Assembly: GCA_019637805.1 (NCBI GenBank)
Contig: JAHBVB010000001.1
Location: 5,262-69,261, forward strand
From: Anaerolineales bacterium
GTDB lineage: Bacteria > Chloroflexota > Anaerolineae > Anaerolineales > UBA11579
Direction of reading: 5' to 3'
Length of the DNA stretch: 64,000 bases
The notes below the pieces were generated by a model that saw only the letters and a list, made by a program, of their open reading frames with translations, ran no database searches and had not been told where the DNA came from. A program made the translations under genes and the position numbers. Positions 10,004 through 14,571 of this stretch are shown in pieces (the first letter of the stretch is position 1; each line of letters starts with the position of its first letter).

Positions 10004-11662
10004 ATGCCATCCACCGACCCCCAACGAACCCTGGGCTCCTATTTGCAGGAGCATGCAGACGCCCACCCCGACCAGACCGCGCTTACTTTCATGATTGGCG
10101 GCCAGCCGCAGCCGGTAAACCGCGCCCAGCTGCTGGCGCATGCGCGCGGGGCCGCGGCCCAACTGGCCGCACAGGGGGTTGGCCCGGGGGATGTGGTGCT
10201 TTTGGTGCTGCAACATTCGCTGGAATTGGTCTACTATTTTTGGGGGGCGGCCCTGCTGGGCGCAGTGCCTTCGATCTTCGCTTTCCTGACAGAGAAGCTG
10301 GACCCGGACCTTTACCGCCAGCGCATCAAAACCCTGGTGGAGCACTCGGAAGCCAAGGCGGTCGTCACCTATCCGGAAAATCAGGCCGCGTTGAGGGAGC
10401 TGCTGGCCGGACTGCCCGTGCAGCTGTTGGTCGCCGCAGGAATTCCGGAGGCGCCGACCGGCCCGCTGAGGGCCGCTGAAATAAGTGCGGAGGAGATCGG
10501 CCTGCTGCAGCACAGCAGCGGCAGCACCGGCATGCAAAAGGGCGTGGCCCTTTCACACGGCGCCGTGCTGCGCCAAATCGCCGCGTACCGCGCCGCGATC
10601 CAACTGGACCCGGAAACAGACGTGATCGTCAGCTGGCTGCCGCTGTATCACGACATGGGGCTGATCGCCGGCTTTGTGATGCCGATCATCACCGGAACGC
10701 ACCTGGTGCTGATGTCGCCCTTCGAGTGGGTGCGCCAGCCGGGCTCTTTGCTGGATGCGATCCACACCTATCGCGGCACATTATGCTGGCTGCCCAACTT
10801 CGCCTACAACCTGCTGGCGCGCACCTTCCGGCCGCAAGAGGGTCTGGACCTGAGCAGCTGGCGGGCGGTCATCAATTGCTCCGAACCGGCACAGGCGGAA
10901 AGCCAGCAACTGCTGCTGGAAAAGCTGGCGCCCTACGGCTTCCGCGAGGAGGCCCTGGCGGTGAGCTATGCCATGGCAGAGAACACCTTTGCCGTCACTC
11001 AAACCCGCATCGGCCAACCCCCGCGGGTGGACACCGTGGAGATCGCCGCCATACAGGAGCGCGGCGCGGCCCAGCCCGCCGCCGAGGGCAAGCGCTTCGT
11101 CAGTTGCGGCCCGCCCATCGCAAGGGTCGAGCTGCGCGTCGTGGACGAGCAGGGACAGCCGCTGCCGGAGCGCCGGGTGGGCGAGATCGCCCTGCGCAGC
11201 GATTTCATGCTGAGCGGTTATCACAACCGCCCAGACCTGAGTGCCCAGGCGCTGACCGCCGACGGCTGGTACTTGAGCGGCGATATGGGCTACTTGGCGG
11301 ATGGAGAACTCTACATCACGGGGCGCAAGAAAGACCTGATCATCGTGGGCGGCAAGAACATCTATCCGCAGGATATCGAAGCCATCGCCAGCCGCACACC
11401 GGGGGTGCACCCGGGGCGGGCGGTGGCGTTTGGCGTGTTTGATGAGCGCCAAGGGTCGGAAAAGATCGTGGTGCTGTGTGAGGCCGCCGCAGACGCCGAC
11501 CCCGACGAGAGCGAGCGCCAGCTGCGCGCCGCCATCGTCAAAGAGACCGAAGTCACTTTGGGCGACTTCCGTTTCGTACCGCGCGGTTGGATCGTCAAGA
11601 CCTCCAGCGGCAAGCAGGCCCGCAACGACAACCGCGAGAAATATCTGCGCGAGTTCAGTTAG
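10004..11662 (+). CDS. Fatty acyl-AMP ligase (FAAL)-type adenylate-forming enzyme, putative loader of the adjacent carrier protein
   Basis: AMP-binding core SSGSTGMQKG. FAAL-style motifs WLPLYHDMGLI, CWLPNFAY, GDMGYLADGELYITGRKKDLIIVGGKNIYPQDIE. 552 aa. Converges on the carrier-protein gene with 6 nt between the stop codons. Confidence 0.75.
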   Translation: MPSTDPQRTLGSYLQEHADAHPDQTALTFMIGGQPQPVNRAQLLAHARGAAAQLAAQGVGPGDVVLLVLQHSLELVYYFWGAALLGAVPSIFAFLTEKLDPDLYRQRIKTLVEHSEAKAVVTYPENQAALRELLAGLPVQLLVAAGIPEAPTGPLRAAEISAEEIGLLQHSSGSTGMQKGVALSHGAVLRQIAAYRAAIQLDPETDVIVSWLPLYHDMGLIAGFVMPIITGTHLVLMSPFEWVRQPGSLLDAIHTYRGTLCWLPNFAYNLLARTFRPQEGLDLSSWRAVINCSEPAQAESQQLLLEKLAPYGFREEALAVSYAMAENTFAVTQTRIGQPPRVDTVEIAAIQERGAAQPAAEGKRFVSCGPPIARVELRVVDEQGQPLPERRVGEIALRSDFMLSGYHNRPDLSAQALTADGWYLSGDMGYLADGELYITGRKKDLIIVGGKNIYPQDIEAIASRTPGVHPGRAVAFGVFDERQGSEKIVVLCEAAADADPDESERQLRAAIVKETEVTLGDFRFVPRGWIVKTSSGKQARNDNREKYLREFS

Positions 11663-11668
11663 AGAGAG

Positions 11669-11917
11669 CTAGCTCGCCCGAGCTTCGATCAAGCCGGCAA
11701 GTTGCTCCAGCGTATCGAAGGTTTCGGCGTTGAGCTCGGTATCATCCAGGCGCACGCCCCAGGTCTGCTCCACAAACAGCGACAAGTCCACCAGCGAGAA
11801 CGAGTCGATCAATCCACCGGAAATTAGCGCTTCCGTGGCGGAGAGCGTTTTGTCCGGACGCTTCAAGATCTCGCCGGTGATGTATGTGTTCAGCTTGCTG
11901 ATGATTTCTGCTTTCAT
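11669..11917 (-). CDS. Acyl/D-alanyl-type carrier protein (phosphopantetheine attachment)
   Basis: 82 aa, acidic. GGLIDSFSLVDL matches the [DG]-S-[FL] phosphopantetheinyl-serine context of ACP/DltC-like carriers. The start overlaps the upstream stop as ATGA (11917-11914). Confidence 0.7.
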   Translation of the reverse strand: MKAEIISKLNTYITGEILKRPDKTLSATEALISGGLIDSFSLVDLSLFVEQTWGVRLDDTELNAETFDTLEQLAGLIEARAS

Positions 11918-13044: not shown

Positions 13045-14450
13045 CGGCCCACCCCCACCCCGGCCAACACGCCAAAGACATGCGCCGCATCTGCCGGCTG
13101 CGGCAGGGCAAACCACACCCAACCCAGCGCAACGAAGACCAGGGTGGCCAGCCAACCCAGGCCGCTGGCCAAGCGCGGCTCAAACGGCAGTGGCCGCGCT
13201 TTGGCGAATTGCGCCCACTGGTTGTGGGCGAACAAGCCCAGACCGTGCCACAGGCCCCAGGCCAGGAAGTTCCAGGTGATGCCGTGCCACAGGCCGATCA
13301 GGCCCATGGTGCTCAGCTGGCCCAGCAGCACCACCAGCCAGACCGGCGCGCCGCGGCCGCGCAGCCAGCGCGTGAAGGGATTGAAGAAATAGGCCCGGAA
13401 CCACTGCGCCAGGGTAATGTGCCAACTGTTCCAGAATTGGGTCAGGTTGGGTTTGCGATAAGGCTGGGTGAAGTTCTCCGGCAAGGTCACGCCAAACAGC
13501 TGGCCCAGTCCGATAGCGATGCTGGTGTAACCCGCGAAGTCGAAGAAGATACGCAGGGCATAAGCCAACAACAGCAACCACATCCACAGCGGCTGACTGA
13601 CCTGCCAGGCGTTGACTGGATTGAGTGCAAAGAAGGCCAGCCCGTCAGCCAGGACGAACTTCATCACCAGGCCGCTGAGCAAGCGCTGGCCGGCCGCCAG
13701 CAGCCCGGCACTGTCCAAGACAAAACCAGGCTCCAGCTGGGGCACAAAGCGCTCAACGCGCTCAATCGGGCCAGCGGTGAGTGCCGGGAAAAAGACGATG
13801 TAGGTGATGAAGTCGCGCAGCCCCACTTCCCCCAGGCGGCCGGCCAGCCGGTCACGCAGCACATGGATCAGCCGGAAGGCGATGTAGGAGAAACCCAGCC
13901 AGCCCAGGTCCAGCGTGCTGGCCAGCGCCGGGTCCTGGCCGCCCAGGCCGCGCAGCCAGGCGCTGGCCGCCTGCACCAGCGGCGGCGACTTGAGCACCAC
14001 CAGCAGGCCGATCAAGAGCAGCACGCCGCCGTGCAGCCAGGCGGCCTGGCCGCGGCCCAGGCGGTACGCCAGCACAGCAGCAACGGCCAGGAGGGCCAGG
14101 CCGCCGCCCGCCAGTTCCAACCCCGGCGGGCGGGCCGGGCTGAGAGCGCTGAGCGGCTCGACAACGCGGGAGGCGCTGACCAGCAGGGCCAGGGCCGCCA
14201 AGCCGGCAGCCGCCCAGGCGTCTTGGCGGTTCCAGCGCCGCGGCAGGGTCAGCGCCCAGACCAGCACTGCCAGGCCCAGGCTGGCCAGGGGCAGCAGGTA
14301 GGGCAGATTGCGCACGAAGGAGGCAGGCTGCAGCCAGAAAGCCGCCAGGACGCTGGCGGCAAACAGCAGCCAGGCGCGGTCCAGCCAGCGGTACAGACGG
14401 CTCGCCAGCAGGCCTAAGCCGGCAAAGATCAGGATCTGGGTCAGGGTCAT
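13041..14450 (-). CDS. MBOAT-family membrane-bound O-acyltransferase (DltB/AlgI-like)
   Basis: Polytopic, 469 aa. Conserved FWNSWHITLAQWFRAYFF (catalytic His region) and GLWHGITWNFLAWGLWHG. Confidence 0.85.
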   Translation of the reverse strand: MTLTQILIFAGLGLLASRLYRWLDRAWLLFAASVLAAFWLQPASFVRNLPYLLPLASLGLAVLVWALTLPRRWNRQDAWAAAGLAALALLVSASRVVEPLSALSPARPPGLELAGGGLALLAVAAVLAYRLGRGQAAWLHGGVLLLIGLLVVLKSPPLVQAASAWLRGLGGQDPALASTLDLGWLGFSYIAFRLIHVLRDRLAGRLGEVGLRDFITYIVFFPALTAGPIERVERFVPQLEPGFVLDSAGLLAAGQRLLSGLVMKFVLADGLAFFALNPVNAWQVSQPLWMWLLLLAYALRIFFDFAGYTSIAIGLGQLFGVTLPENFTQPYRKPNLTQFWNSWHITLAQWFRAYFFNPFTRWLRGRGAPVWLVVLLGQLSTMGLIGLWHGITWNFLAWGLWHGLGLFAHNQWAQFAKARPLPFEPRLASGLGWLATLVFVALGWVWFALPQPADAAHVFGVLAGVGVGR

Positions 14451-14451
14451 G

Positions 14452-14571
14452 CTAAAAACCCTGGTAGATCCATAACGGGCTGGCGTCGGCCGTCATGACC
14501 AGCAACGCCATCACGGCCAAACACAATAGGACGGCGTAGAGGTTCTCGCGAGTTAATAGAGACTTAAGCAT
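14452..14571 (-). CDS. DltX-like single-pass micropeptide (39 aa) ending WIYQGF
   Basis: Internal ATG (14571) of the 80-aa track ORF gives MLKSLLTRENLYAVLLCLAVMALLVMTADASPLWIYQGF: one TM helix plus a C-terminal aromatic-I-Y-x-x-F. The TAG stop lies 1 nt before the MBOAT ATG. Confidence 0.55.
   Translation of the reverse strand: MLKSLLTRENLYAVLLCLAVMALLVMTADASPLWIYQGF

Follow-up and report, generated by a model that had tools for sequence, protein, structure and literature searches.

Among bacterial pathways that pair a membrane-bound O-acyltransferase (MBOAT) with an SGNH-family protein, a carrier protein and a DltX microprotein are known only from Dlt (PMC12148441). In this pathway, DltB, the MBOAT, moves D-alanine from the carrier DltC to the invariant tyrosine of the C-terminal FXYXXF motif of DltX, and a serine of DltD then takes the D-alanine and passes it to lipoteichoic acid (Schultz, Snow and Walker 2023, in the summary given by PMC12148441). 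Other bacterial MBOATs bear the motif on their own C-terminus and draw on an acyl-CoA donor, with neither carrier nor microprotein (PMC12148441). Here we describe a five-gene cluster at positions 10004-14571 of a 64,000-nucleotide stretch (hereafter the window) of contig JAHBVB010000001.1, from an Anaerolineales bacterium of the phylum Chloroflexota. With a probability of roughly 0.7, we read this cluster as a Dlt-type, carrier-dependent MBOAT-SGNH transmembrane acylation system rebuilt around a fatty-acyl-AMP ligase (FAAL). By the distinctions drawn in PMC12148441, it is the combination of a DltB-like MBOAT free of the motif, a microprotein ending in WIYQGF, a linked carrier and an anchored SGNH protein that makes the cluster Dlt-type. 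The reading draws on the family and fold of the parts, on their catalytic and motif residues and on their conserved linkage. An earlier note on this DNA had proposed a Dlt-type relay for a different acyl cargo; the five open reading frames, the three coupled junctions and the convergent ligase gene 6 nt away that it described are all present in the sequence, as is every motif that it quoted from the translations. The five genes are:

14452..14571, minus strand: membrane microprotein of 39 amino acids, MLKSLLTRENLYAVLLCLAVMALLVMTADASPLWIYQGF, from the open reading frame list; DltX analogue
13041..14450, minus strand: DltB-like MBOAT of 469 amino acids, from Pfam, NCBIfam, PDB and fold matches
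11914..13044, minus strand: SGNH-fold protein with an N-terminal membrane anchor, 376 amino acids from the ATG, in the DltD position
11669..11917, minus strand: stand-alone carrier protein of 82 amino acids, from a PP-binding match
10004..11662, plus strand: FAAL-family adenylating enzyme of 552 amino acids, from NCBIfam and PDB matches

The MBOAT (Pfam, 5.1e-25) has DltB as its sole NCBIfam match (TIGR04091, 1.5e-61, 208.7 bits, under the 375-bit equivalog cut-off) and as its sole PDB sequence matches (1.9e-37). DltB is also the top Foldseek match (6bug/8jem, E 7e-15, TMt 0.66) of its AlphaFold2 model, which has a pLDDT of 90.5, and the next fold matches are HHAT and PORCN at E of about 1e-6. 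The protein ends in ...HVFGVLAGVGVGR and has no FXYXXF motif of its own. In a phmmer alignment to 6bug, H336, H289 and W285 of DltB correspond to H389, H344 and W340, all three of which are invariant in 25 MBOAT homologues; in the numbering of the Streptococcus thermophilus enzyme, His336 and His289 belong to the DltB active site and Trp285 to its tunnel (PMC11035591). On these sequence and model matches, and with no C-terminal shuttle motif of its own, the MBOAT is of the DltB type and not of the AlgI/PatA type. We propose His389 and His344 as its catalytic residues.

The micropeptide consists of basic N-terminal residues, one transmembrane helix and the ending P-x-W-I-Y-Q-G-F-stop. Across 21 aligned micropeptides, each encoded directly upstream of an MBOAT, P32, W34, I35, Y36, G38 and F39 are invariant, and the N-terminus and transmembrane segment are variable. 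The ending WIYQGF recurs in 62 of the 65 micropeptides recovered, two others ending in WIYLGF and one having a disrupted frame. This ending fits FXYXXF with tryptophan for the first phenylalanine; FXYXXF is the acyl-shuttle motif of DltX and PatA, with an invariant tyrosine (PMC12148441), and S. thermophilus DltX itself ends in FLYFGF (PMC11035591). By analogy, we propose Tyr36 as the acyl-shuttle residue, on a tail that would be extracytoplasmic. None of the 21 micropeptides matched Pfam DltX at E<=10, and the micropeptide profile returned only noise against the PDB, with no DltX chain matched. At two loci (L042:6307-7908 and L019:2809-4386) the micropeptide frame continues into the MBOAT gene; L019 holds a run of N and WIYQGF is disrupted in L042, and these run-on frames could be assembly errors, real fusions or pseudogenes.

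The ligase (Pfam AMP-binding, 3.6e-58) has FAAL-type models at the top of its NCBIfam matches (PRK07768 at 385 bits, PRK09192 at 348, MbtM at 262 and FadD32 at 240), all of them describing enzymes that pass fatty acids to carriers, such as MbtM, the N-terminal domain of PvdL and FadD32. The amino-acid adenylation domain model reaches 141.5 bits against a cut-off of 317, and the 25 NCBIfam families listed include none for DltA. Its closest PDB matches, aligned end to end, are the FAALs 3kxw (Legionella, 6.4e-65) and 3pbk (Escherichia coli, 9.8e-63); acyl-CoA ligases in the PDB align to its C-terminal part only. Both the helix (FSH) and the insertion (FSI) specific to FAALs are present: ligase residues 337-372 align to the insertions of 3kxw and 3pbk with gaps of only 1 and 3 residues, and region 239-245 corresponds, with no deletion, to the helix at T252-R258 of the E. 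coli enzyme (EcFAAL). W224, M231 and F279 of EcFAAL correspond to W211, M218 and F266, and it is these bulky residues together with the helix that make FAALs reject CoA (Patil et al., PMC8460268). The CoA-rejecting features are kept in 46-47 of 47 orthologues, as are the motifs WLPLYHDMG and PNFAY. Mapped in this way on 3kxw and 3pbk, the ligase is by sequence a true FAAL and not an ordinary acyl-CoA synthetase, which upholds the assignment made in the earlier note.

The acyl pocket is unusual. At its motif (ligase residues 322-329, window 10967-10990), 46 of the 47 orthologues read YAMAEN(T/V)F, compared with YGLAE(A/N)xL in solved C12-binding FAALs and YGMAEHVM in a paralogue at locus L081 that has no MBOAT. 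Relative to the usual FAAL pocket, alanine stands for glycine and phenylalanine for leucine. The divergent motif may be the mark of a different substrate, and the two substitutions appear to leave chain length, and even substrate class, undecided; chain length is not predictable from FAAL phylogeny (PMC12820801).

The carrier matches Pfam PP-binding (2.3e-4), and Ser39, part of a DS motif within GGLIDSFSLVDL, is where phosphopantetheine is predicted to attach. Its best NCBIfam matches are acyl carrier proteins (ACPs) at 38 bits, and the DltC models fall far below their cut-offs (PRK05087 with 18.3 bits against 68, TIGR01688 with 14.4 against 52). The OlsH/OlsI ornithine-lipid pathway, whose ACP is the best of these matches, was considered as a relative and rejected, both on score (38 bits against a cut-off of 130) and because that pathway has a GH3-like enzyme and occurs in planctomycetes.

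The anchored SGNH protein has an N-in transmembrane anchor and an invariant residue set comprising GDS (Ser95), YNLG (Gly131), NEP (Asn290) and His350. It matches Lipase_GDSL_2 at 1.3e-5, below the cut-off and over the C-terminal part only. Its AlphaFold2 model (pLDDT 80) finds the DltD structures 6pfx, 6o93, 3bma and 7dxm by Foldseek (TMq 0.33-0.43), and the N-terminal anchor and overall size of the protein resemble those of DltD. The family is large, with more than 4400 matching proteins and, after clustering at 50% identity, 1253 clusters matching at E<=1e-3; its named members come from Anaerolineales or Chloroflexota metagenome-assembled genomes (MAGs) and are called 'hypothetical', generic SGNH/GDSL hydrolase or similar. 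The comparison with DltD drawn in the earlier note thus extends only to the fold and to an anchor at the N-terminus; homology to DltD is not demonstrable by sequence.

Distribution, gene order and variant clusters

With each species represented by a single genome, the distribution scan recovered relatives from at least 562 species-level genomes. The locus counts that follow refer to the best 80 loci, of which 71 have room upstream and 59 have at least 4.5 kb downstream. All 80 belong to Chloroflexota-type MAGs, labelled Anaerolineales, Caldilineales, Thermoflexales, Aggregatilineales, Promineifilaceae or Ardenticatenaceae, and the gene set is class-wide in the Anaerolineae. One of the related loci, L021, bears the label of an Anaerolinea thermophila MAG; cultured Anaerolineae exist.

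Across dozens of species-level genomes, at 42-95% amino acid identity, coding capacity is preserved for all five genes, the micropeptide among them, in a common neighbourhood, which is more than chance would give. The common order, on one strand, is micropeptide, MBOAT, SGNH, second secreted SGNH (where present), carrier and FAAL, and it is unchanged even in two distant family members (L083 and L084). In 66 of 71 loci the MBOAT gene is the immediate upstream neighbour of the SGNH gene, and the micropeptide, with its invariant C-terminus, was found in 64 of the 71. Of the 59 loci with downstream sequence, 48 have the carrier and 45 the FAAL. Where both occur, carrier and ligase adjoin each other in 43 of 45 loci and share a strand in 42; the three opposite-strand loci are the window's own clade. 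The convergent ligase, which the earlier note had listed among the departures from canonical Dlt, is true of the window yet not a property of the system, being a local inversion confined to this clade.

The flanks consist of housekeeping genes, for example those for FolD, GyrB, a Ser/Thr kinase, FtsH and MutS. Neither a racemase nor an aminotransferase nor a teichoic-acid gene was found conserved beside the cluster in the locus flanks, in keeping with the earlier remark that teichoic-acid genes are not nearby. At the loci examined, the only other recurrently linked gene families are two that we call E and N. Protein E is a second secreted SGNH/GDSL lipoprotein of about 390-430 amino acids, present in 60 of 80 loci and mostly encoded between the SGNH and carrier genes; protein N is a small secreted protein of about 165 amino acids, present in most loci and usually encoded upstream of the micropeptide (examples at L003:9082-10371, L010:9230-10390 and L010:5810-6313). 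L003 encodes N as a fusion with E. In P0242, P0243 and P0263, E is joined to the anchored SGNH protein, which supports a joint function of the two SGNH proteins. We propose that E acts in the relay of most relatives, as a terminal transferase or esterase. Both E and N are absent from the entire 64-kb window and from a 94%-identical relative (L001), both of which have lost them; the cluster in the window is thus a minimal form of five genes, its ligase inverted.

Two further arrangements were seen. In the first, overlapping genes encode a carrier of 85 amino acids, a FAAL of 571, an SGNH relative of 369 with GGS for GDS and a GT1 glycosyltransferase (L081:6035-10368 and L082:192-4525), with no MBOAT or micropeptide within 8 kb. 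This paralogous cluster suggests that the trio of ligase, carrier and SGNH protein can be wired to another partner, and its GT1 gene hints at a glycosylated acceptor, possibly a glycoside. In the second, an Aggregatilineales MAG (GCA_029976025.1) has two MBOAT-SGNH pairs (L016 and L085:2380-5850), one with a carrier and FAAL 5 kb away and the other with a 676-amino-acid SGNH protein (the relative spanning 316-668) and no carrier or ligase nearby. The latter is a caveat to the linkage, though paralogous export modules may share one loading pair.

Proposed relay and competing explanations

Modelled on the Dlt and PatAB mechanisms in every chemical step, in the nature of the cargo and in the acceptor, the relay would proceed as follows. 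The cytoplasmic FAAL would adenylate a carboxylic acid, most likely aliphatic or fatty, and load it onto the phosphopantetheine arm of the carrier at Ser39; loading onto a carrier is expected because the enzyme has the CoA-rejecting features of its family, and an aliphatic cargo is the most likely because its close relatives all load fatty acids onto carriers. The acyl-carrier would then dock at the cytoplasmic face of the DltB-like MBOAT, whose His389 would catalyze acyl transfer through the protein to Tyr36 in the WIYQGF tail of the microprotein at the outer face. From the tyrosine ester the acyl group would move to Ser95 of the anchored SGNH protein, which would hand it to an extracytoplasmic acceptor. 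A fatty cargo is what we infer from FAAL family membership.

Several observations weigh against this relay. Not one of the five proteins scores above a curated Dlt family cut-off, and the ligase is of a different family; the cluster is thus not a member of Dlt, although it would work like it. The DltC-docking residues of DltB are not kept in the MBOAT. For the SGNH protein there is no DltD family match in Pfam or NCBIfam, the fold match of its model to DltD is no better than that to generic SGNH esterases, with similar E-values, and PDB sequence searches with the protein itself and with a profile of 24 sequences drew no match. FAAL-family enzymes are not all users of fatty acids, and the pocket motif is an unusual one. 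About one-fifth of the loci with sufficient flanking sequence lack carrier and ligase within 8 kb, the SGNH gene stands alone at a few loci, and the MBOAT-less paralogous cluster indicates that its trio may work without a neighboring MBOAT. We acknowledge, too, that the system is known from sequence, models and gene linkage.

As to what the relay would be for, one possibility, to which we give somewhat less than even odds, is a bacterial extracytoplasmic lipidation machine in which a fatty or other aliphatic acyl group passes from the acyl-carrier by way of the DltB-like MBOAT, the microprotein tyrosine and one or more SGNH transferases to an envelope glycoconjugate, lipid or protein. The alternative that survives best, though we consider it unlikely, is relay-free acylation of a lipid or glycolipid, in which the MBOAT would transfer from the acyl-carrier straight to a membrane lipid in the manner of DGAT- or LPCAT-type enzymes, the SGNH proteins would serve as esterases or in remodelling and the micropeptide would be structural. 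The paralogous carrier-FAAL-SGNH-GT1 cluster points toward a glycosylated, lipid-like acceptor of this kind, and LPCAT3, DGAT1 and ACAT are among the fold matches of the MBOAT, though as much weaker ones. Against this alternative, the best fold matches behind DltB are HHAT and PORCN, enzymes that acylate lumenal substrates; the invariant xIYxxF-stop is exactly the acyl-shuttle signature (PMC12148441) and would go unexplained in a purely structural subunit; and the SGNH protein keeps its full nucleophile and oxyanion set and is fused in some genomes to the second SGNH protein.

A second alternative, to which we give only a slim chance, is true D-alanylation or another aminoacylation with a non-orthologous ligase, the FAAL-like enzyme loading an amino acid or small polar acid destined to esterify an anionic polymer. 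The conserved DltB-like tunnel and active site would suit such a cargo, the Ala/Phe pocket could mean a pocket shorter than that of C12-bound FAALs, and some FAAL-family members take non-fatty substrates, for example McyG, which is among the PDB matches of the ligase. On the other side, the ligase has its CoA-rejection and FAAL-specific elements intact, scores 141 bits as an amino-acid adenylation enzyme against 240-385 as a FAAL with no DltA-type model among the 25 families listed, and the genes conserved beside the cluster include no racemase, aminotransferase or teichoic-acid gene. The O-acetylation of a polysaccharide or peptidoglycan from acetyl-CoA by an AlgI/AlgJ or PatA/PatB kind of pair, with the carrier and ligase as unrelated neighbors, is very improbable: many homologues are called AlgI by automated annotation, the SGNH protein is not demonstrably DltD and the carrier and ligase are not nearby at some loci, but the MBOAT lacks the fused C-terminal FXYXXF and extra helices of acyl-CoA users (PMC12148441), a separate microprotein carries the motif, the curated and PDB matches are only to DltB, translational coupling joins the carrier to the SGNH gene, and carrier and FAAL are linked to the pair in about three-quarters of loci, class-wide.

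The earlier note had named in advance four findings that would tell against a Dlt-type relay with another acyl cargo (a pair of the AlgI or PatA type, loss of the carrier-ligase adjacency in relatives, an ordinary acyl-CoA synthetase, and an absent or unconserved micropeptide); the analysis turned up none of them, and the relay is accordingly supported. The author of that note could not match the cluster to a characterized pathway, and we too found no paper describing it; our literature search returned nothing that connects FAALs to bacterial MBOATs, or systems resembling Dlt to the Chloroflexota.

Candidate regulatory signals and other features of the window

Two candidate regulatory signals flank the cluster:

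14582..14609, minus strand: promoter-like TTTACC-16-TATAAT, a consensus match only, at 10 of 12 positions
9953..9979, plus strand: strong terminator-like hairpin with a 12-bp stem followed by a T-run, a consensus match only

The promoter-like site ends 10 nt ahead of the micropeptide ATG, which would give a very short leader, and no Shine-Dalgarno sequence is visible before this ATG; together these suggest that the operon mRNA may be nearly leaderless. Only 45 nt (14572-14616) separate the micropeptide ATG from a divergent homocysteine S-methyltransferase gene (14617-15504). Within the operon, the micropeptide is translationally coupled to the MBOAT by a TAG-c-ATG junction, and the MBOAT/SGNH and SGNH/carrier junctions are both ATGA overlaps, the latter of which, joining the SGNH stop to the carrier start, couples the carrier translationally to the SGNH gene. 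The mechanically called SGNH frame extends to a TTG at 13155; homologues begin at the ATG at 13044. The convergent carrier and ligase genes both end in TAG, and six bases lie between the two stops. The hairpin sits between the ftsH stop and the ligase start and would keep the ligase apart from the ftsH transcript; co-transcription of the two genes was considered and set aside for this reason.

Elsewhere in the window, a Lit-family protein (lipoprotein intramolecular transacylase; 24209-24865, minus strand; Pfam 1.6e-24) is encoded in this Chloroflexota genome, adjoining a gene for a 517-amino-acid protein with a spermidine-synthase-like domain (24865-26418). A surface-type protein of 2159 amino acids (27-6506, plus strand) has DUF11 and Cna-B/pilin-like repeats and, at its own C-terminus (2019-2153), a sortase domain, an unusual fusion of the enzyme with an apparent adhesin of the sortase-substrate type. 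Three open reading frames without Pfam matches, encoding proteins of 290 amino acids (18970-19842, minus strand), 339 (21193-22212, minus strand) and 611 (22244-24079, plus strand), lie in or beside stretches of lower G+C content (0.57-0.58 against about 0.63), and the last 4 kb of the window is lower still at 0.51-0.57.

Comparison with described acylation systems

The closest described system is the Dlt machinery of Firmicutes (DltX-DltA-DltB-DltC-DltD), with which the cluster shares an adenylating enzyme, a stand-alone phosphopantetheine carrier, a DltB-type MBOAT free of the motif and with His336, His289 and Trp285 kept, a single-helix microprotein with an aromatic-x-Y-x-x-F end, encoded first and directly before the MBOAT, and an N-terminally anchored SGNH protein. 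The differences are that a FAAL takes the place of the DltA-type amino-acid adenylation enzyme; that the carrier, SGNH protein and microprotein have no significant DltC, DltD or DltX family match; that the MBOAT reaches 209 bits against the 375-bit DltB cut-off and is unlike DltB in the DltC-docking residues; that two more secreted proteins, an SGNH lipoprotein and a small one, occur in most relatives; and that the host is a member of the Anaerolineae, in the Chloroflexota, with no teichoic-acid genes nearby. The Chloroflexota are, to our knowledge, not a phylum known to make teichoic acids. The cluster challenges the stated restriction of a carrier and DltX microprotein to Dlt (PMC12148441), having both together with a ligase of another family. 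If the lipidation reading is true, the cluster would provide the first example of a Dlt-type relay that does not serve teichoic-acid D-alanylation, and its microprotein would be the first DltX-like one outside Dlt.

The O-acetylation systems of peptidoglycan (PatA/PatB) and alginate (AlgI/AlgJ/AlgF/AlgX) likewise combine an MBOAT with an anchored SGNH protein and an acyl-tyrosine shuttle motif, and their two SGNH-type proteins per cluster (AlgJ and AlgX, PatB and Ape1) recall the situation in most relatives of the window. They differ in carrying FXYXXF on the MBOAT C-terminus, on two extra transmembrane helices, and in the use of acetyl-CoA with no carrier or microprotein (PMC12148441); here, in contrast, a peptide of its own bears the shuttle motif, and the cluster includes genes for a carrier and a ligase. 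Should the proposed relay operate, acyl-tyrosine shuttling would amount to a modular export route of general use, in which the cargo can be swapped via the loading enzyme, and the acyl modification would probably be an abundant one of the Anaerolineae envelope. In sediments, soils and wastewater sludge the Anaerolineae are a major group, and the chemistry of their envelope is poorly known.

On the cytoplasmic side, the counterparts are FAAL-ACP pairs (EcFAAL, 3PBK; LpFAAL, 3KXW; MbtM-MbtL; FadD32-Pks13), which resemble the ligase in full-length homology (E 1e-63 to 1e-65), in the FAAL insertion, helix and W/M/F residues and in an adjoining small carrier gene. The pocket motif differs, YAMAEN(T/V)F here and YGLAE there, as does the downstream partner, which here is an MBOAT-SGNH export module and not a polyketide synthase, a nonribosomal peptide synthetase or a soluble acyltransferase. 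FAALs have so far been tied to polyketide, nonribosomal peptide and lipid pathways, and the MBOAT-SGNH module is a new kind of partner for them. Finally, the eukaryotic protein-lipidating MBOATs HHAT, PORCN and GOAT, which provide the second-best fold matches (E of about 1e-6), take a fatty acyl group off a thioester in the cytosol and deliver it to a substrate across the membrane. They differ in using an acyl-CoA donor with no carrier, microprotein or SGNH partner, and identity is only 14-15%. Should the lipidation reading be true, the Anaerolineae cluster would be a prokaryotic counterpart of lipidation of the HHAT/PORCN type.

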